Notes: generated from the sequence alone by a model not told the origin. DNA of 64,000 bases from GCA_000165345.1 CM000431.1:352001-416000; one strand, 5' to 3'. Positions 7,499 through 49,674 are shown, counted from the stretch's first letter. A program made the numbers and translations.

Positions 7499-8690
7499 AT
7501 TTATTTTATAGTTATAGTCAATAATCTCACTTTAATTAATATTATAATATTAAATTCAATACATAAATTGTTTTGTTATAAAGAACTTATCTTATTTGTC
7601 TTTCCTCCTCACTATTACTACTTTTTTTTATTTAAAAAAAAAGGAAATATTCCTGTGTTTTTATTTTTCCCAAGTTACTTTCATTCTAGCTTCAATTATA
7701 AAAAAAACTTTCAGCTTCTAGCTCATGTAGAAATCCTTAAAAATTGAAAACTATAAATTTATAAAGTTGCCTTTTCACTTGTAATATTCCAACATATTTA
7801 TTGCCTTTTGGCATTTATATGTTAATTCAAATGATCAATCATTTTCAAGAATTTTAGGCGCCTACCCCACAATAAATGTCAAATTGACGCATGCGCATAG
7901 AAATTTGTTATCATTCTGAATTTAGTCTGCAAATAATATTTAAATAAATTTAAACAAGAAACTAATATTTCTCAAGGATCAAGTGAGAAATATCTACTCA
8001 GAACAAGTCTTACTGACTTCTTACAATCAATATTCACTGCTAAAATTTTATAAAATAAAGAAAAGAAATTAAAATAATAAGGATTTTTAAAAAAAAAGTG
8101 CAACTTCACAATTCAATAAACCTATTTAACTTTCTTGAATTAGCAAATTCCGGTTTACCTCATATTTTATTTGAACCTAAATTTATTCAAATTAAAATAT
8201 TTAAAATTGTTTACAAACATTCCCGCCAAATACACACACATTTATTGGCGCCAACACTTTTCTTTTAAGAATCGAAAAGGTACCAAGTTCTATTGCAAAG
8301 AATCCAAATTTCAATATTTCCTGCAACTGTGATAACGAAAAATATTAGGATTCTGAATGGTATTGGTGAATCTAGACAAAAGTCTTTAAACGTTTTTGTT
8401 ATCTGAAAATAGAGTTGAGTTAATTTTTTTAATAACTATAAAACAACTTTTAGCGCCAATACATTTTTAAATTCAAGGGAAGAACCATTTTTGTATTTAA
8501 AGTTAAATCTCAAAAAATAGGGAATTAGATTCTTAGATAAATGCTTATGCAAACTGAAAGAAAGAAAACGCTCTAAACTTAGGAATAATCCTTTCTAACT
8601 CAGAAGGAAGAAATACCCACTCTTTATTTCAATGAAGCAAATAATCTATATTTATTACCTTCAAGTGACTAGAAGAATTTTATCATCACA

Positions 8691-12774: not shown

Positions 12775-12825
12775 TTTGGCGCCAAAGTGCGGAACAGCTA
12801 ATTGTCATCGTTTTTGGCGCCAAAC
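12775..12825. promoter_or_regulatory. Two perfect TTTGGCGCCAAA palindromes (12775-12786, 12814-12825). They lie in the divergent promoter between the Nab2-like gene (minus) and the 13006 gene (plus).
   Basis: Seen in the sequence. This is the textbook E2F/DP consensus TTTSGCGCSAAA. Confidence 0.55.
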
Positions 12826-36851: not shown

Positions 36852-36868
36852 GGCGCCAAAAACATGCA
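36852..36868. promoter_or_regulatory. CGGCGCCAAAAACATGCA composite element upstream of the first IQ gene.
   Basis: Seen in the sequence. A second element, TTTTGGCGGGAAACAATTCCATG, is at 37308-37330. Confidence 0.4.
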
Positions 36869-37675: not shown

Positions 37676-39192
37676 ATGTTGATAAATAATGAGAATGTGA
37701 GGGCAGAAGAAGAGAATGGTCGTAGACCAACAAGAAACGAAACTATTGTCTATAAGATAGTAAATTATATGTCATCTTTAATTGGTGGAATTAACGATAA
37801 TGTGGGTAGAAATAATCCGTGTATTGGTATTTTAAGTCCAATGTCTCCAGTTATGATAACAGATCATGTTAAGACAGTTGGGAATACAATGGTTTTACCA
37901 AGTCCAGAACCAATAATTCAGATGATTCCAAATCAAAATCTAAGGAATAATATGTTCTTTAACGTTTACAGCAATGATAAAAAATATGTTCATAAATTTG
38001 GGCCTAAAGTTACTCCATATACTAATTTGAATAACGGATTATTAGCTATTAATGAAAAAGGAGACCAAATTGTTACTGGAAATATATCACTCATGAGTTC
38101 TCCTACTGATATGTGTTTAAACTCTTCAAGAAATAAATTAATTAATCCTAGTAGTTATTTTTCGAGATTAAGGAATCCAATCAGTGAATGTGGAGGTCTT
38201 GTAAAATCACCAATCAATTCATGTTTTAGTGGCCAAATCAACAAGGCTAATGAGTCATCTATTACTGAAATACTTGTCTCACCTGAACTTGCTCAAACAC
38301 TTCAGCAGATAATTTCAATAATTTCCCACCAAATAGAAATTGATGATTCTGAAAATTTTATTAATATTAATAATATCAAAGGATCTGTCAAGATTAACAG
38401 ATTTCAGAGAATTAACAAGAAAAGTACAATTGGAGGATTAAACTATGCCCTTATGAGTTATTCAGCAAGTATTATTCAAAAACACTTTAGAAATTTTGAT
38501 AATAATAGAATGGTAAGATATATTAATCCAGTTACTAGAAGTAAATTTTCAAAAAATCAAATCATGAATGCAATTCATATTATTCAAAGATATTGGAGAA
38601 TTTATATGTATCGTAACCAGATTATGAGAGAGCTCTTAATAAAAAATGTTATGACTGCTAGAAATGCTGCAAGTTGTAAGATAGCTTCTTTATGGAAAGG
38701 ATATAAAACAAGAAAGTTTATGGATTCTATCATTAAAGATGTGTATATCAAATGGATTTGGAATAATGATGATTCAGCTAATAATAATTGTTCTTCTGAA
38801 ATCAGCAATACTCAAAACTATGAATATTCAAAATATGAAGTTAAGTTAAGAGGATCTTTCACGTGTAAGCCATGGCAAGAACATTTAAAACTTAATTGGG
38901 ACAACCAGGAAAACTGTTTTCTAATTAATATATGTCTCACAAAAGGGGCTCATTATCTCCAATTTATAATTAATGATGAAATTAAAGCTTGTGGGAGTAT
39001 GGAAATTGTTGTTTTACCTATCATTGGAGTATCCAATAAAATCAATATTGTTGGAGAATCCTACAAAAGTTCACGTAAGTTTATTCTACTTTCCTATCAA
39101 CTAACACATTTTTTACTCTTTTTTATTTTTATTTTTCAGTAAAGAGAATTAGATCAAATATTCAAAAAATTACTTCAGAAATTCATGTTTAG
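37676..39192 (+). CDS. IQ-motif protein with a C-terminal AMPK-beta-type carbohydrate-binding module (CBM48-like). Probably two exons, 37676..39074 and 39140..39192.
   Basis: ATG at 37676. IQ motifs are IQKHFRNFDNNRM, IQRYWRIYMYRNQ and ASLWKGYKTRKF. VKLRGSFTCKPWQEHLKLNWDNQENCFLINICLTKGAHYLQFIINDE aligns with the AMPK-beta GBD VYLSGSFNNWSKLPLTRSHNNFVAILDLPEGEHQYKFFVDG. A GTAAGT donor is at 39075 and a TTTTTCAG acceptor at 39139. The track's hydrophobic tail LLSYQLTHFLLFFIFIFQ is intron read-through. Confidence 0.55.
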
Positions 39193-39415
39193 CTAATTTG
39201 ATATAACTTCCCGCTTTTAAATAAAAACATTTAGACCGAAAACCCATTAATTCACTTATTCTTTGAAAACACCTTATCATAATGCTATCGAATAGGTTTA
39301 CTTAATTAGAAGGAAATTATTTTTGTATTTTAATTGATATTTAATTCTATTCATCTCTTCCTAGTTTCCTACACTTTTATTATTACTCACAATTTACATG
39401 CAAAATAACAACGTT

Positions 39416-39433
39416 GGCGCCAAAATACCCGCC
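39416..39433. promoter_or_regulatory. GTTGGCGCCAAAATACCCGCC, a GGCGCC plus G-box element 420 bp upstream of the second IQ gene.
   Basis: Seen in the sequence. Confidence 0.4.
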
Positions 39434-39836
39434 TAATAATGTATGCTTTAGACTAAATAACTAGGTCAAATTAAACAAATAATAGTAATTAATACTAAAT
39501 TGATAATATAGAGTGGTAAAAACGTAAAACTCTAATTAAAACGGCTAAAAATAAGGAAATAATTTATTATTAATTTATGATTGTGATCATAATAATAACA
39601 TTTTAGTAGAATTATCACACTTTAAAGATTTATTCAATAAAGCTGGATACTAATTAATAAAATTATTTTTGTAAATTGTGTATTAATCAATTGAGTAAAA
39701 TTTCGTGATCATACTGGTCTAAGCTACTTTTTTGTAATAATAATAATTGTTACTATTAGAATATTTACAAAAGTAAAGCTAATTAAGTAGATTTTTGAAA
39801 AGTAATGGTTAAAGGGACACTACAATACCTTTGAAA

Positions 39837-41795
39837 ATGTTTAGTCGTCTATACAATAGAAACGTGGATAGCAATAATCAAAGCTCTGGTAAATCAAACA
39901 GAATTAGAATCACCTTAAATGACAGAATAAATTCTAGAGAAGCTGCAAAATTTCCAATCACTGAAAGCAGATCTTTTATCAATCATGGAGAAAAAGATGA
40001 TTATTCGGTAGTAAGAAGAAGTAATACTATAGGAAGAATCATACAAAATGGATCTCAGCAAATCTTCTATCCTATAAACCCCAATAATAACTTTACTAGA
40101 CAACAAATGAGAGGTTGTTACAATTCAAATATAGTACAAAATAGTCACTCAAACTTTCAACAAAATGGTTCCATCGATTCTGCTCTCAGTAGCAGGAGAT
40201 CCAATGAGTTTAATACAATTCAATCTTTAAGATCAACATCTGATTTAGCTTCGAAGATTTCGTCAAACGTAGTATTAGCAGAAGATCAGGAACCTAAAAT
40301 AGCTGGAAACAAAGTAAAGTCTATTACATCTTCAATTCCTCTAAATTTAATAGAGAAAGATTCGGCTGAGAGATTAAAATCCTCTGTAAATAGTCAGATT
40401 AATGAAATTGAAGATAGCGAAAATGAAAGACTAAATAGTAATAGAAATAGATATGGACTTTCACTTGATTTATATTCACTTACTGAAGATTCTGCGAGAA
40501 AAATAAAGCCAGAATTGTCAGTTGAATTGGAATGTTCGATTAATGAGACAAGTGAAAATAATGAGGTACTTGTAAGGAGTATTTCATTACAGAAGGAAAA
40601 GTTACCTAATTTGGAGATTTTTCCTTTGGAAACAGTGAATAGCCCAAATTCAAAAAGTAACAATAGAGAAAACTGTCAATTAAGGAGATTTATTGATAAT
40701 AGTGAAATCACTGGATTAATTTCAAAACTTAACAAATCAGCATTTTATTTTGTAAGGTTTAATTTACTTTTACATTTAGCTGCAATAGTTATTCAATGTT
40801 ATTTCAGACGATATCTATGCAAGAAATATCTATATTTCAGAAAATATGGACCAATTAAGCTCTTGAACACTTCTGCAATGCAAATACAAGCATGTTGGAG
40901 AAGTTTTCTGACTAGATTTGGCGCATCTCTGTGTGAAGGGACGCCTTCAAACAATGGAAGTCATAAATGTATAAATGAGTATAATTGGTCGACTCTTCAT
41001 GAGAAGAATTTTACTGAGATTGTTAAAAAAAGAAATCAAAATGCAAAATGCATACAAAATTTCTGGAGAAATATATATTTAAAAAATATCAACATTGAGA
41101 GGGAAATCCTGACAAATTCCATATTCTCAGCTAGAGCTTTAGCTAAAGAGACTATTGAGAAATTCCTTCTTGGTTATTTAGTTAGGAAGAATGCTGATTC
41201 TAGATATAAACTAGTTCCTATTAAATGGAGTTGGAGCGTTCAGGAGATTTCAGAAATCTTCATTTTGCAAAAAATTAGAAACAGATGGTCAGAACCAAAG
41301 AAGATGTGGCTCAATCAGGAGGAAAATGTCTACAGATATAATCTTTTCCTATCAAATGGTATCCATCAAGTTGTATTTAAAGTGTACTATAAGAATAAGG
41401 AGTGTAAAGGAGATCAGGATTACAAGATTTTATGTAATTCATCCTTGGAAACTACTCCAAGTGATGAATTCCAGTTTGTAAACAATATCAGTGTTTACAA
41501 TAATAACTATACTGTTAGTGCTTTCAAGTACATGAGAGATAGAATCTCATACATTAATTTCTCAACTATAAATTATTTGGACAACCTAAACCCCGATATT
41601 ATGCAAAATATTGAGCAGGATCTAGGCTATATTGCATTATCTCCGAGTTACAAGCAGCGCCTTGATATTGAATACTCAGAAACTGAATATGAAAACTCTC
41701 CCTATAAAGAGTTTGACAGAATTAAGAATGATGTAATTAACACTCCAAGTACTAACTTAGACTATAGTCCAGGAACTCAGCACTTTATCCATTAA
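39837..41795 (+). CDS. Tandem paralogue of the preceding gene: an IQ-motif protein with a C-terminal CBM-like domain.
   Basis: The track M at 39831 is a TTG; the ATG is at 39837. IQ motifs are IVIQCYFRRYLCKKY, MQIQACWRSFLTRF and KCIQNFWRNIYLK. The C-terminal WSWS...NVYRYNLFLSNGIHQVVFKVYYKN has the same architecture and order as gene 37676. Confidence 0.6.
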   Translation: MFSRLYNRNVDSNNQSSGKSNRIRITLNDRINSREAAKFPITESRSFINHGEKDDYSVVRRSNTIGRIIQNGSQQIFYPINPNNNFTRQQMRGCYNSNIVQNSHSNFQQNGSIDSALSSRRSNEFNTIQSLRSTSDLASKISSNVVLAEDQEPKIAGNKVKSITSSIPLNLIEKDSAERLKSSVNSQINEIEDSENERLNSNRNRYGLSLDLYSLTEDSARKIKPELSVELECSINETSENNEVLVRSISLQKEKLPNLEIFPLETVNSPNSKSNNRENCQLRRFIDNSEITGLISKLNKSAFYFVRFNLLLHLAAIVIQCYFRRYLCKKYLYFRKYGPIKLLNTSAMQIQACWRSFLTRFGASLCEGTPSNNGSHKCINEYNWSTLHEKNFTEIVKKRNQNAKCIQNFWRNIYLKNINIEREILTNSIFSARALAKETIEKFLLGYLVRKNADSRYKLVPIKWSWSVQEISEIFILQKIRNRWSEPKKMWLNQEENVYRYNLFLSNGIHQVVFKVYYKNKECKGDQDYKILCNSSLETTPSDEFQFVNNISVYNNNYTVSAFKYMRDRISYINFSTINYLDNLNPDIMQNIEQDLGYIALSPSYKQRLDIEYSETEYENSPYKEFDRIKNDVINTPSTNLDYSPGTQHFIH

Positions 41796-41906: not shown

Positions 41907-42083
41907 AGATCTAAATTAGTATTACTTAGGGTAACTAGGCAAAATAATAGAAATTCAAAGTTAAAAAAAATAATAACAAATTATATTAATAAATCAGAAT
42001 TATTAATATATAGCATATGCCTTATAAAAGGTTTTTGTTAATTAAAGCTAGCTGTAATATTAATATAATTGTTTATACTGATC

Positions 42084-42512
42084 ATGGTAGATAATACTCG
42101 AGGAGAAAAAGATCTAACAAGCCTAAATACAAATAATAATGAAGGCTTGGATGGGAGTTCCAACTTCAATTTTGACATTCAGTCATCTCTTTTGGCAACA
42201 AAGAAGGCACTAGATGAGGATATGAAGGTAAGTTTGCTAAATAATATTTTTGAAGAGTTTTAGTGATAGCATTGCTGATGCTCTTTAATAATTTAGTTCC
42301 TAGTAATTATCAACTATATGTAAATTTAGAATCTAAGCATTGTTAATGTTGACGCGGGAAACATTCAAAAACTTTCACAGTTATTTGATTTATCACTTAC
42401 ACAAGCCGAAAACATACTTAAAGCCAACAACAACAGTGTTGAAAAGTCTATTGACGATTTGTTGTTAAACTTCTCAGATTTCCAAAATTCCAGACTTGAT
42501 TATCAATTTTAG
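42084..42512 (+). CDS. Small NAC-alpha/HYPK-type UBA-domain protein. Two exons, 42084..42227 and 42330..42512.
   Basis: The track M at 42069 is a TTG; the ATG is at 42084. A GTAAGT donor is at 42228 and an AATTTAG acceptor at 42329, both phase 0. Exon 2's ILKANNNSVEKSIDDLL matches the NAC-alpha UBA ALKNNSNDIVNAIMEL. Only about 109 aa. Confidence 0.5.
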
Positions 42513-42518
42513 AATGGT

Positions 42519-42556
42519 GGCGCCAAAGTCATGTATTTTGGTTAGTGTTTGGCGCC
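42519..42556. promoter_or_regulatory. Two GGCGCC elements (GGTGGCGCCAAAGTCATGTA at 42516-42535, TTTGGCGCCAATC at 42548-42560) 270-310 bp upstream of the 42828 gene.
   Basis: Seen in the sequence. Confidence 0.45.
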
Positions 42557-42827
42557 AATCTACAATAAATAATTAAGGGGTACCTATTATTTAAGGAGAA
42601 AAGAATGCAAAAAGGTTTGTAGAAAAATTGTTCAAGTCTAAGGGAGAATTTCTTAAGAAATATATAGTTTTGTAGAGTGAAGGCTGAAATATAAAATTTT
42701 TGTTTGAAGGTTCAAAGGTATTTTGGTAGTGGATCATGATCTTTTGATTGTGTGGGAATAAGTTAATAATATTAGAGTACACACTGAAGCTATTGAGTTA
42801 ATTAGTTGGAGGAGATTGTACAAGAAA

Positions 42828-45690: not shown

Positions 45691-48600
45691 ATGAGTAACT
45701 ATAAACAAACTGAACTAAAAAGAAACAAGGGCGATTCAAGAGATGTTTCACTACTTTCTGCTTCAAGCTTGCATGAAGGCCAATCAAACATGCAAATGTG
45801 GAGGAGAAGGTGGGAGCCATGCCTACCACACATACTAAGATCCCCGTTATCTATTAAGGAAGTTTCAGCTTTTGAAGGAATGGGGAAAATGGAAAGATCT
45901 GACGTTTCTGCCTATTTTCCTTTAACATCTGGAAACAGTTTGGTGAAGTTTGAGGCCATTTCAGATGGAAGTAGCTCATGGAAGAAGTTTCCCGCCAGAA
46001 GAATCGGAGTAGTATTATCGGGAGGTCAGGCCTCAGGAGGTCATAATGTGATTGCTGGATTAATGTCTTATATTAAACTTTGTAACCAAAGTAGTCAGCT
46101 TTTTGGATTTTTAGGAGGCCCAGAAGGAGTATATAGTGGGAGATACAGAGAGTTAACTGAAGATGATATTAACGGTATACTTAACCAGGGAGGGTTTAAT
46201 ATTATTTGTTCAGGCCGTCACAAAATTGAAACAGAAGAACAAATGAGAGCTTCCTTGGAGATTTGTGAAAAACTCAAATTACATGGCCTAGTAGTAATAG
46301 GAGGAGATGATTCTAATACAAATGCAGCAGTTCTAGCAGAATACTTCAAACGTAACTCGTCTAGTACAGTAGTTGTAGGATGTCCCAAGACCATAGATGG
46401 AGATTTGAAAAACGAGGTAATTGAGACATCTTTTGGTTATGATACAGCAGTGAAAACTTATAGTGAACAGATTGGAAGTATTATGGATGCAATTAAAACT
46501 GAGGGATACGGATACTATTTTGTAAGGTTGATGGGAAGATCTGCATCTCACATTACTTTAGAATGCGGTCTTCAGACTAGAGCGAATATGATCTTGATTG
46601 GAGAAGAAATTAAGGAAGAGAACAGATCTTTGATGTCGATAGTAGACGAAATTGTAGAAATGATTCTAAAAAGAGATTCACTGGGAAAGAAACATGGAAT
46701 TGTATTATTACCCGAAGGGTTAATAGAGTTTATTCCAGAATTTGAGACTTTAATCAAAGAATTAAATCTTATTTTGCTTAAAACTAACGATAGAAAACAG
46801 ATTATAGATAGCTTAAGTCAAGAAATGAAGACTCTTTTCTTGGAGCTTCCTTCAGATGTACAAAATCAGCTCCTTTTAGAAAGGGATCCACATGGTAACG
46901 TTCAAGTAGCAAAGATAGCAACAGAAGAGTTGTTAGTACACATGGCAAAAGAAAAACTTGAGAGGGTAAAGAAGGATTATATTTTAGACAATGTTAAGAC
47001 TCACTACTTTGGATATGAAGGAAGATGCGCTTTACCTTCAAATTTTGATGCAAGTTATTGCTTTGCTCTTGGACATACTGCAGCAGCTCTTATAGACAAT
47101 CAGCGTTCAGGATATATGGCAGTAGTCAGGAAGCTAAGCTTAACTCCTGAACAATGGGAACCAGCAGGATGTCCTCTTACATATATGATGAATATTGAGC
47201 TTAGAAAAGGGAAGTCTGTTCCCGTTATTAAGAAGTACTTAGTAGATCTTAAAGGACAATCTTACTTAGCTTATTGTCAAGTTAGATCTGAGTGGAAGTT
47301 GAATGATTATTACAGAAATCCAGGACCAATACAATTTGATGGTCCTAATTCCGGAGTAACTAATTATATGATTTCTCCTCCAAGAGTGGAGGATTTACTT
47401 AGAATGGAGGATAGATGCGAGAATAAAATGAGTCATAAATTATCAGGGTCAGAAAGCTCTCAAAATAGATCAAAGGACGACATGAAGATACAGAAGATCC
47501 TTCTTTCAACAGCTTCCAAGTTTAACGATGATCTAATCATTTCCTCCTCATGCAGAGATTTAGATGCTTACATTATTACTAAATGTTTACCTCATCAGAC
47601 TGGGAGACACAACAGCAAAATACTACAATTAAAAGAGGAGGAATACTCATCAGGATTCACAGAGATAAGAGAGAACAGCCAGTCAAAATCTTCCATGGGT
47701 AATTCACTAGCTTGTGAGTCACTTGGATTAATTCTATCATGCCTTTCAACTCCTGGTACTCAGAATGTAATTTGTGGACTAGTCAATGGACTACCATCGC
47801 TTAAACAGCTTATAGTTTTTAAGTCTCTCTCAGACTTTTCAGAAGGAAAAGCTCTAAAAGTCGATCTTACTTCCGAAGGATCATTGGCTTTCTTTGAGAA
47901 TTCTCTCAATTCTGGAGGCTGTATATTCCCAAATGGAGTAGAAATAAAAATGAATGTCTCAGAAAAAAAGAGCTCAAATACAACTTTAAAAGCTAATGAT
48001 AACCAAGAATTCACAAACAGCTCTTGCGTTCTTTCATGCAAAGGGCTAGTTAGTAATGACTTCCTCTCTCAACTCTTGTCATTTTTTAATATGCGTGCAA
48101 TTGCAATTGTGGGGAACAGTGAGGCGGCAACGTTTGGCGCCTCTATATCGGAGCAATTAATTTGCATGTCGTTAAATGGCATGAAGAGTGAGATCCCAGT
48201 AGTGTTTGTTCCAGTTTGCTTGGAAAACAGTATTTCTCATCAAATGATTGAGACATGTATTGGATTTGACTCTGTAACTAAGAGTATTTCAACTTTGGTT
48301 GGAAATCTGTTAACAGATTCAGCTTCAGCAACAAAGTATTGGTATTTCATGAAGATGATAGGCGATAAGACTTCAAATGTTGCTTTAGAGGTTGGAATAC
48401 AAACTCATCCAAATTTGGTTGTAATTCCAGAAAGATATGCAGATGGAAAACTTTCAGTTTATGGTTCAGAAATGGCTGGGGTCACTTTAGATGATATTAT
48501 TACTGAAATTTGTGATATAATTTGTTTGAGATCTAATCAGGGAAATAATTTTGGCGGGCTCCTGGTATCAGAAGGTCTTTTTGACCAGGTATACCCAACA

Positions 48601-49674
48601 AGAGAGTATAGGAAGATATTTTCAAGGTTTAGCACTCAGAATTTATGTAATGCTTCAAATTCAGGATGCGAGATTCTGGGTTCTGAAAGTTTAAGTAGAT
48701 ATGAGAAAAAAGTTGTTGAGGATTTCAAACTTATATTTAGTGATATAGATACGAGACTTATTGAGAATTTGATTAATTCAAGAAAGATATGTGATGTTAG
48801 GACTGAGATTATACTCTCAGCTCTGGTTCAAAAGGAACTCAAATTTAGAAGGTCTAAGAATAAAATTAAGAATGGGATGAACCCAGTGTGCTTTAGTTTT
48901 ACAGATCAAGTCAGAGCTTGTATCCCTTCTGATTTTGACTCTACACTTGGATTAATGTACGGAATGCTTGCATCAAAAATAATTAATAGTAACTTGGTTG
49001 GGGGATATGTTACGGGGATTAAGGGGGTATTGAGCCAGACAGATAGTTGGAATATGTATGCTATTCCTATTTCCTCTTTAATGACTTTAAATATTGAAGG
49101 AGATAAAATACAGGATTCAAGAAACAACTCAAATCTTTCATTTGAATCAAAGAAACTTCTAACCGAATCTACACTAGGAAATGCTGGCCATCAACTTGAA
49201 TTCATATGCAAACTGAATTCCGTTAATTTGCGCAATAACCCTTCATTTAAACTTTTAATGAACCACATTGAAAAATGGGAAGTCGATAATACTTATGCTA
49301 ATCCAGGCCCTATTCAATACTTTAATCTATTCAAAAATTTATTCAACAGAACACTATTTGAAAGTGAATACGTTTATACGCGAAACCTAAAAGAAATGGA
49401 TCAAATATTACTTGAAATTAAGACATTATGCCAATTAGGTGTTGAAAAGGATATTTTAAACTCTACTATACAACACTTAAAGGCAATTCAAAATTCTATT
49501 TCAATAATGAGCAGCTGTAACCACAGAAAATCTAAACCAGAACAAATAGAATGCATACAGAAAACAAACTCAATAGCAAACTACACATCAAACTTAAAAT
49601 GCAAAAGCAATAATAATGAAACCAATCTGGAAATGATTGTTAACAATATTATTAATCAGGAAACTTGCAATTAA
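45691..49674 (+). CDS. Pyrophosphate-dependent phosphofructokinase (PPi-PFK), a long two-domain form with a catalytic N-terminal half and a degenerate C-terminal PFK-like half.
   Basis: ATG at 45691. The N-terminal half has GGDDS (VVIGGDDSNTNAAVL; Asp at the Gly position is typical of PPi-dependent enzymes), PKTIDGD (GCPKTIDGDLKN) and MGR (LMGRSASH). In the C-terminal half the same positions read VGNSEA, PVCLENS and MIGDKT, so the catalytic signatures are lost. Confidence 0.9.
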   Translation: MSNYKQTELKRNKGDSRDVSLLSASSLHEGQSNMQMWRRRWEPCLPHILRSPLSIKEVSAFEGMGKMERSDVSAYFPLTSGNSLVKFEAISDGSSSWKKFPARRIGVVLSGGQASGGHNVIAGLMSYIKLCNQSSQLFGFLGGPEGVYSGRYRELTEDDINGILNQGGFNIICSGRHKIETEEQMRASLEICEKLKLHGLVVIGGDDSNTNAAVLAEYFKRNSSSTVVVGCPKTIDGDLKNEVIETSFGYDTAVKTYSEQIGSIMDAIKTEGYGYYFVRLMGRSASHITLECGLQTRANMILIGEEIKEENRSLMSIVDEIVEMILKRDSLGKKHGIVLLPEGLIEFIPEFETLIKELNLILLKTNDRKQIIDSLSQEMKTLFLELPSDVQNQLLLERDPHGNVQVAKIATEELLVHMAKEKLERVKKDYILDNVKTHYFGYEGRCALPSNFDASYCFALGHTAAALIDNQRSGYMAVVRKLSLTPEQWEPAGCPLTYMMNIELRKGKSVPVIKKYLVDLKGQSYLAYCQVRSEWKLNDYYRNPGPIQFDGPNSGVTNYMISPPRVEDLLRMEDRCENKMSHKLSGSESSQNRSKDDMKIQKILLSTASKFNDDLIISSSCRDLDAYIITKCLPHQTGRHNSKILQLKEEEYSSGFTEIRENSQSKSSMGNSLACESLGLILSCLSTPGTQNVICGLVNGLPSLKQLIVFKSLSDFSEGKALKVDLTSEGSLAFFENSLNSGGCIFPNGVEIKMNVSEKKSSNTTLKANDNQEFTNSSCVLSCKGLVSNDFLSQLLSFFNMRAIAIVGNSEAATFGASISEQLICMSLNGMKSEIPVVFVPVCLENSISHQMIETCIGFDSVTKSISTLVGNLLTDSASATKYWYFMKMIGDKTSNVALEVGIQTHPNLVVIPERYADGKLSVYGSEMAGVTLDDIITEICDIICLRSNQGNNFGGLLVSEGLFDQVYPTREYRKIFSRFSTQNLCNASNSGCEILGSESLSRYEKKVVEDFKLIFSDIDTRLIENLINSRKICDVRTEIILSALVQKELKFRRSKNKIKNGMNPVCFSFTDQVRACIPSDFDSTLGLMYGMLASKIINSNLVGGYVTGIKGVLSQTDSWNMYAIPISSLMTLNIEGDKIQDSRNNSNLSFESKKLLTESTLGNAGHQLEFICKLNSVNLRNNPSFKLLMNHIEKWEVDNTYANPGPIQYFNLFKNLFNRTLFESEYVYTRNLKEMDQILLEIKTLCQLGVEKDILNSTIQHLKAIQNSISIMSSCNHRKSKPEQIECIQKTNSIANYTSNLKCKSNNNETNLEMIVNNIINQETCN

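Follow-up and report, generated by a model that had tools for sequence, protein, structure and literature searches.

The 64,000-nt stretch of DNA analyzed here (GCA_000165345.1 CM000431.1:352001-416000, hereafter the window; G+C content ∼30%) carries two adjacent genes on the same strand, at 37676-39192 (gene 1) and 39837-41795 (gene 2). An initial annotation, made from the sequence alone, had described them as tandem paralogues that combine calmodulin-binding IQ motifs with a carbohydrate-binding module (CBM) of the AMPK-beta type. Our analysis bore out this observation and, in part, the interpretation attached to it. Open reading frames (ORFs) were found for both genes; the end of gene 1 requires a 65-nt intron. 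Judged by gene order, the locus is on chromosome 3 of a Cryptosporidium parvum/hominis-type genome. Because the order of ORFs in the window reproduces the order in a published supplementary table, which runs from the methyltransferase cgd3_1360 to the PPi-PFK cgd3_1400 (PMC6877471), and because PFK is syntenic, we assigned gene 1 as cgd3_1370 and gene 2 as cgd3_1380. The ORF at 45691-49674 has a gap of 454 nt on its 5′ side, and the upstream length listed for PFK1 (cgd3_1400) is 455 (PMC1779779). In these close comparisons, every homologue of the two genes came from Cryptosporidium, with identities of 100% (a protein from a public assembly), 97% (a cluster named as C. tyzzeri) and 92% (C. meleagridis). 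Gene 1 orthologues were found in eight other Cryptosporidium species or assemblies (56-97% identity). The current annotation of cgd3_1370 is 'Ig-like fold' and that of cgd3_1380 is 'IQ motif'.

If gene 1 is left unspliced, its ORF stops at 39142 and ends in a hydrophobic tail. Removal of an intron at 39075-39139 (+ strand; GTAAGT...TTTTCAG) keeps the frame from 37676 to 39192 and joins exon 1 (37676-39074, +), which encodes a conserved N-terminal region, the IQ helix and the CBM48-like domain, to exon 2 (39140-39192, +), which includes the stop codon; the splice yields the tail SSLKRIRSNIQKITSEIHV immediately before that stop. The intron is supported because the spliced tail (SSLKRIRSNIQK) agrees with that of the C. 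felis model (SSFKRIRSNIFK; model P0007) and fits the SPF(K/R)xIR motif found 3′ of the CBM in coccidian and gregarine relatives. Most deposited models of gene 1 orthologues read through the intron to a hydrophobic end (SSRKFILL...FIFIFQ) and appear to miss the 3′ intron; one of them is named 'putative transmembrane domain-containing or GPI anchor-containing protein', probably because of this artefactual tail. When the equivalent intron was sought in C. muris gene 1, GTAAGT was seen but a convincing acceptor or KRIR exon was not found. Gene 2 (39837-41795, +) is a single exon of 652 aa, and its ATG at 39837 agrees with the MFSRLYNR start of nine orthologues, C. muris and C. serpentis included.

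IQ motifs were scored with Pfam (PF00612; gathering cut-off 20.3 bits) and with the core pattern [ILVFM]Qxxx[RK]xxxx[RK], for which expectations were taken from shuffles. The initial annotation had named failure in calmodulin-binding consensus scoring, together with the lack of a CBM-like fold, as grounds for refuting its proposal; the Pfam scores exceeded the cut-off for gene 1 (22.8 bits), for gene 2 (35.4 bits) and for all 19 orthologues (9/9 for gene 1 and 10/10 for gene 2). The core pattern had three occurrences in gene 2, compared with 0.13 expected (P 1.5e-4); gene 1 had a single one (P 0.075). The earlier count of three IQ motifs per gene therefore holds in spirit but is generous for gene 1, which has one consensus and two degenerate motifs, compared with three consensus motifs and one degenerate motif in gene 2. 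In gene 1, IQ-1 (ASIIQKHFRNFDNNRMVRY; 38465-38521, +) matches the consensus partially, with IQxxxR present (IQKHFR) and the second basic residue displaced; IQ-2 (AIHIIQRYWRIYMYRNQIM; 38570-38626, +) matches the core pattern and contains the Pfam stretch (aa 302-315); and a degenerate motif (AASCKIASLWKGYKTRKFM, IAslwKGyktR; 38666-38722, +) adjoins the CBM. Gene 2 has three pattern matches, IQ-1 (AAIVIQCYFRRYLCKKYLY; 40779-40835, +; Pfam stretch aa 315-331), IQ-2 (SAMQIQACWRSFLTRFGAS; 40872-40928, +) and IQ-3 (NAKCIQNFWRNIYLKNINI; 41040-41096, +), and a degenerate motif adjoining the CBM (LAKETIEKFLLGYLVRKNA, IEkflLGylvR; 41139-41195, +) that is homologous to the degenerate motif of gene 1 and to the last IQ in relatives, where that motif is canonical. 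Every column of the gene 1 motif has its counterpart in the canonical IQKAWRGYKVRK of homologues from gregarines and coccidia, which carry the full consensus at this position (textbook IQkaWRGYkvRK). In both genes, the degenerate last motif was the only one with glycine at IQ position 7. The IQ helix is predicted to bind calmodulin or calmodulin-like light chains.

The domain that follows the IQ helix was assigned to CBM48 by different routes in the two genes. In gene 1 it spans aa 356-460 (38741-39055, +), with a low-confidence insert of 20-25 aa after strand 1, and it matched PF16561 (AMPK1_CBM) marginally, at 27.1 bits (cut-off 26.8; E 4.8e-6), as did all nine of its orthologues. The gene 2 domain (aa 459-555; 41211-41501, +) is divergent, its KV strand being followed by an inserted loop; neither gene 2 nor its orthologues matched PF16561 (0/10 at E≤1), and the gene 2 CBM profile gave no match to PDB sequences at E≤10. 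The signature GSF..W...G.H.Y.F.I.DE, which had been reported for both genes, is literally present only in gene 1, and the gene 2 CBM could not be called from the signature alone. The assignment in gene 2 rests on paralogy and predicted fold, and its link to CBM48 runs only through gene 1: when CBM profiles of the two genes were compared with the IQ region removed, hhalign gave a probability of 93.9% (E 1.5e-7).

Structure prediction, which the initial annotation had suggested as a check, produced a CBM48-like sandwich for both genes. In the gene 1 model from AlphaFold2, which covers IQ-2 to the CBM (predicted local distance difference test score, pLDDT, 76), a continuous helix (residues 2-59) that contains the degenerate IQ motif runs into the beta-sandwich; the model of the gene 2 region (pLDDT 80.5) consists of a helix, an eight-stranded sandwich and a second helix. 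The closest fold neighbors of the modelled domain were starch-binding domains of the AMPK-beta/SEX4 type, and all neighbors were starch- or glycogen-binding. A combined two-gene sequence profile had its best PDB matches, albeit weak, in SIP2 and LSF1. These two proteins were also matched by the profile of the gene 1 CBM, alongside weak matches to segments of the large clostridial toxins TcdB (Clostridioides toxin B) and TcsL (E 0.002-0.05), in which the first 60-70 residues of the CBM region (IKDVSIKWIWS.DD...) aligned with toxin residues ∼1730-1800; we judged the toxin matches to be compositional and spurious. On the models, the predicted CBM48 fold is solid for gene 1 and good for gene 2, the alignment for the latter having included gene 1 sequences. 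Chance resemblance of the CBM was rejected on the evidence of fold, profile and family. Beyond the sandwich, gene 2 has a conserved post-CBM helix (YTVSAFKYMRDRISY...; 41508-41591, +; model helix 133-155) whose position is equivalent to that of the SPFxxIR motif of relatives and in which S, K, R and I do not vary among the orthologues. The family motif SPFxxIRxxL corresponds to SSLKRIRSNIQ in the spliced tail of gene 1 and to SAFKYMRDRIS, helical in the model, in gene 2. The architecture first described, with a variable N-terminus, an IQ helix and a CBM48-type sandwich, is supported.

The two N-termini differ from each other. Residues 1-260 of gene 1 (37676-38460) had no Pfam match yet are strongly conserved across the genus, C. 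muris included, with conserved strings such as TIVYKIVNYMSSLIGG, NPCIGILSPMSP, TMVLPSPEPII, FGPKVTPY and VSPELAQTLQ, in contrast to the poorly conserved N-terminus of gene 2. This N-terminal half may constitute a further functional module.

Several comparisons make cgd3_1370 and cgd3_1380 recognizable as paralogues within one family. BLASTP aligned aa 303-447 of gene 1 with aa 406-532 of gene 2 (E 4e-11; 31% identity over 147 aa), and a joint alignment of both orthologue sets contained invariant columns across two IQ motifs, the IKWxW first strand, and Trp, Gly, Phe, Glu and Asn positions. The pair is ancient within the genus. In C. muris, orthologues of gene 1 (489 aa) and gene 2 (728 aa) follow a 1024-aa gene and a methyltransferase in a syntenic block that has PFK further downstream, and in C. 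ubiquitum and C. bovis the two orthologues have adjacent locus tags. In a neighbor-joining tree of 161 columns, a simple method in which long-branch and compositional artefacts are possible, genes 1 and 2 formed a joint clade in 99/100 bootstraps, and each family alone was recovered in 100/100. Because of the C. muris synteny and this clade, we place the duplication in the Cryptosporidium stem, before the split of gastric from intestinal species (C. muris/C. parvum), which agrees with the earlier proposal of a lineage-specific expansion by tandem duplication.

Coupling of IQ motifs to a CBM had been considered unusual, but it is not peculiar to this locus. A profile spanning the IQ motifs to the CBM, derived from the two Cryptosporidium families, was run against a set of 1.84 billion representative proteins (E≤1e-3) and returned 69 matches, of which about 40 were colinear from the IQ motifs into the CBM. 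A repeat search with a broad family alignment (A6) returned one 97-aa fragment. The named carriers were Cystoisospora, Hammondia, Besnoitia, the gregarines Blabericola and Gregarina, and Vitrella brassicaformis, whose protein is labelled 'AMP-activated protein kinase glycogen-binding domain-containing' in UniRef; the coccidian, gregarine and Vitrella proteins covered profile positions of about 2-173 with E-values of 1e-9 to 1e-15. On the upstream side, homology within the family reaches the beginning of the IQ array (F..LR......AA.IQ), and on the downstream side it takes in the helix that follows the CBM. From these alignments, the two genes belong to a real, experimentally unstudied family common to coccidia, gregarines and chromerids; we found no paper in the literature that describes the IQ-CBM48 architecture. 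Orthology could not be shown for TGME49_262120, despite its having the same product name.

Relatives outside the genus fall into two kinds. The coccidian, gregarine and chromerid proteins (Hammondia XP_008882885, Besnoitia XP_029221860, Cystoisospora XP_067920258, Vitrella CEM33392) are colinear with the Cryptosporidium pair from the IQ start through the CBM to the SPFxxIR helix. They differ in having one representative per species among the matches, a length 2-3 times greater with low-complexity tails, a canonical last IQ (IQxxWRGYxxRK), and retention of K126 and of a mostly aromatic residue at the W133 position (AMPK-beta1 numbering); no published functional data were found for them. The second kind comprises protist and metagenome proteins (P0044, P0049, P0057, P0070, P0075 and P0078), which share the unit of IQ motifs followed by CBM48 but continue into a C-terminal PTC7/SpoIIE-type PP2C-like domain that the Cryptosporidium genes lack, and which formed a separate branch in the neighbor-joining tree. 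Tested members of the family outside Cryptosporidium, the PP2C-fused proteins included, matched PF16561 strongly (E 1e-12 to 1e-18), with E-values of about 1e-13 for those tested among the apicomplexan and chromerid proteins. The six fused proteins are akin to other enzymes that combine a phosphatase with a starch-binding domain, and may constitute a calmodulin- and starch-linked phosphatase family.

We next compared residues at four positions that contact glucan in AMPK-beta, after the sequence and numbering of the rat/human AMPK-beta1 CBM had been checked against the PDB and aligned with the family. The W100 position, at which the mutation W100G abolishes glycogen binding in AMPK-beta1 (PMC6274970), is conserved in the non-Cryptosporidium members and in both genes. 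N150 is conserved in nearly all non-Cryptosporidium members and likewise in genes 1 and 2. The K126 position is K in nearly all members outside the genus (Q in P0043 and P0046) but Q in gene 1, including that of C. muris, and V in gene 2. The W133 position, mostly W in the PP2C-fused proteins (L/I in P0049 and P0057) and mostly Y/F in the apicomplexan and chromerid proteins, is I in both genes. Substitutions at these last two positions are fixed across Cryptosporidium. The FIINDEI stretch of gene 1 resembles FIVDNEL of SIP2, which likewise lacks the W133 tryptophan. Because the contact residues are kept in the wider family, the ancestral CBM looks competent for glucan; the CBMs of the Cryptosporidium pair, by contrast, are probably weakened for glucan or retargeted. 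The targeting to amylopectin granules suggested by the initial annotation is thus plausible for the family, whereas for these two copies it is weakened by the replacements (K126 to Q/V, W133 to I) and by expression that lies outside the female amylopectin regulon.

Published expression data (PMC6877471; mean log2 counts per million, CPM) gave values of 5.1 in asexual stages, 5.7 in females in vitro and 0.2 in females in vivo for cgd3_1370, and of 5.8, 3.3 and 6.8, respectively, for cgd3_1380, compared with 6.5, 11.4 and 11.0 for PFK (cgd3_1400). Between asexual stages and in vitro females, the log2 fold change was 0.59 for cgd3_1370 and −2.48 for cgd3_1380, while PFK rose by about 5 log2 units; 22 enzymes of amylopectin and trehalose metabolism are induced in females (PMC6877471). 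Across three bulk conditions, which we take to be sporozoite, 24 h and 48 h, cgd3_1370 rose from 4.1 to 5.3 to 6.9. The two paralogues have clearly diverged in regulation.

The interpretation that we favor, with a probability of roughly 55%, is that the genes are ancient tandem paralogues encoding light-chain-binding adaptors, in which CBM48 serves as a docking module with a degenerate glucan site. They would be non-catalytic members of a conserved apicomplexan/chromerid family. A single long alpha-helix with three to four IQ motifs would recruit calmodulin or a calmodulin-like light chain; it enters strand 1 of a sandwich of the AMPK-beta/SEX4 type without a linker, and the short conserved helix follows the sandwich. 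The last IQ lies directly against strand 1, so that a light chain bound there could modulate docking of the CBM. The ancestral role, most likely, was a Ca2+/calmodulin-linked attachment to amylopectin as the storage alpha-glucan, since the CBMs of the wider family keep the glucan-contact residues of AMPK-beta. In the Cryptosporidium lineage, two of these residues were replaced before the genus radiated, with weak glucan binding or docking to a protein partner as the probable outcome. The docking target would be amylopectin for the ancestral and coccidian proteins and, in Cryptosporidium, weakly amylopectin or else a protein.

Some observations weigh against this interpretation. The full IQxxxRGxxxR consensus is present in none of the IQ motifs of the two C. 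parvum genes, the alignment behind the gene 2 model contained gene 1 sequences, and no localization or binding data for either protein were found in the literature. Two of the four glucan contacts tested are replaced in both genes, and in AMPK-beta1 the mutation K126Q abolishes glycogen binding and W133L weakens it (PMC6274970). Neither gene follows the female amylopectin program, and cgd3_1380 appears in a list shared by sporozoites and in vivo 'females' together with actin, myosin light chain, articulin and myosin (PMC6877471).

One alternative is that both proteins are functional amylopectin-granule tethers, which bind amylopectin through a site of the W100/N150 type plus other aromatic residues and bring calmodulin-regulated partners to it in zoites and oocysts. 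The invariance of the W100 and N150 equivalents in the gene 1 and gene 2 families is consistent with this idea, as are the exclusively starch- or glycogen-binding fold neighbors, the consumption of amylopectin by sporozoites (PMC6877471) together with the sporozoite association of cgd3_1380, the precedent of CDPK2 (PMC9729606), and the finding that, among the profile-search matches, the IQ-CBM48 family has so far appeared in no named lineage that lacks amylopectin. Nevertheless, we hold tethering to be somewhat unlikely for this pair, given the genus-fixed Q/V and I at positions shown to be important by AMPK-beta1 mutagenesis, the lack of co-regulation with the 22 amylopectin/trehalose enzymes in females, and the near disappearance of cgd3_1370 (0.2 log2 CPM) in in vivo females, the stage at which amylopectin is loaded. 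A scaffold associated with the cytoskeleton or a motor and unrelated to glucan would account for other features: its IQ neck would hold light chains of the myosin type, and the CBM48 with its trailing helix would dock a protein while zoites are built, much as the AMPK-beta CBM clamps onto the kinase N-lobe. The loss of glucan-contact residues suits such a role, as does the expression of cgd3_1380 (high in asexual stages, low in in vitro females and high in in vivo 'females') and its listing with actin, myosin regulatory light chain, articulin and myosin in the sporozoite overlap. However, the lists are broad and include metabolic genes such as PFK2 (PMC6877471), the glucan residues are kept in relatives, and we found no evidence of localization or interaction in the literature, so this possibility seems to us distinctly improbable.

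Sequence and fold searches had AMPK-beta and SIP2 glycogen-binding domains as their top matches, as would be expected if the proteins were divergent beta regulatory subunits of AMPK/SNF1, but we rejected this identity because the C-terminal alpha/gamma-interaction domain (AMPKBI) is absent. In neither protein, and in none of the orthologues, did Pfam match any domain besides IQ and AMPK1_CBM, in keeping with the earlier remark that the kinase-binding tail is lacking. The CBM is C-terminal rather than central, an IQ array is foreign to beta subunits, and neither protein has the N-terminal Gly2 needed for myristoylation; a beta subunit is therefore highly implausible. Compared with the CBM48 glycogen-binding domain of AMPK-beta and yeast SIP2-GAL83 (PF16561), the Cryptosporidium proteins keep the W100 and N150 equivalents but have an IQ helix before the CBM and replacements at K126 and W133, and they are not kinase subunits by any criterion tested.

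The adaptor reading that we favor has parallels in other systems. Plant proteins of the PTST/FLO6 type and the glucan phosphatases SEX4/LSF are alike in concept, in that a CBM48 is joined to a helical interaction region or a phosphatase and partners are delivered to starch, but they are plastid proteins whose sequence relationship to the genes described here is limited to the CBM. PTST uses coiled coils instead of IQ motifs. The starch-binding module of CDPK2 is a CBM20. Toxoplasma CDPK2 resembles the proposed adaptors in wiring Ca2+ signaling to storage glucan through a starch-binding module; it differs in being a kinase with its own EF hands, whereas the Cryptosporidium proteins lack a catalytic domain and would depend on calmodulin as a separate protein. 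That granule-level Ca2+ control exists in Apicomplexa is shown by TgCDPK2, which binds amylopectin and regulates its amount (PMC9729606).

Two features of the surrounding DNA were also noted. A palindrome (TTGGCGCCAA) lies between genes 1 and 2 at 39414-39423 (no strand assigned), some 415 nt 5′ of the start codon of gene 2. It occurs at 14 sites in the window (for example 8245-8254, 12776-12785, 12814-12823, 39414-39423, 42518-42526 and 42549-42558), and its core (TGGCGCCAA) has 23 strand-matches compared with 0.13 expected by chance. The sites that we examined lie upstream of ORFs, namely gene 2 and an 806-aa ORF at 42816, and a variant (GGCGCCAAA) is present at 36852, upstream of gene 1. 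We take the palindrome to be a likely shared promoter element, similar to the E2F-like motifs of Cryptosporidium. A C. muris gene of 118 aa, faintly matching UBA_HYPK, separates the gene 2 orthologue from the next large gene (L001 11950-12408). The corresponding interval of the window holds only a 64-aa ORF (42069-42263), so this stretch may harbor a small and possibly spliced gene.

Amylopectin is the fuel reserve that sustains the infectivity of Cryptosporidium and coccidian oocysts and sporozoites, and it is consumed by motility and invasion, which are triggered by Ca2+ signals. To our knowledge, TgCDPK2 is so far the one direct link from Ca2+ to starch in Apicomplexa. The pairing of IQ motifs with CBM48, not unique to this locus yet unstudied as far as we found in the literature, makes the IQ-CBM48 family a concrete candidate for a second such link, and in distant relatives the same unit is joined to a phosphatase. 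What we describe is drawn from the domain architecture of uncharacterized genes and is not a demonstrated mechanism. A more speculative and rather unlikely extension is that the unit acts as a calmodulin-gated glucan clamp, in which Ca2+/calmodulin on the IQ motif adjoining the CBM would act as a switch for attachment of the CBM to, or its release from, granules of storage glucan. If this were true, alveolates and the PP2C-fused relatives would have a direct Ca2+ switch for mobilizing amylopectin at zoite activation, and the Cryptosporidium pair would be a sub-functionalized version of it with an altered binding site.

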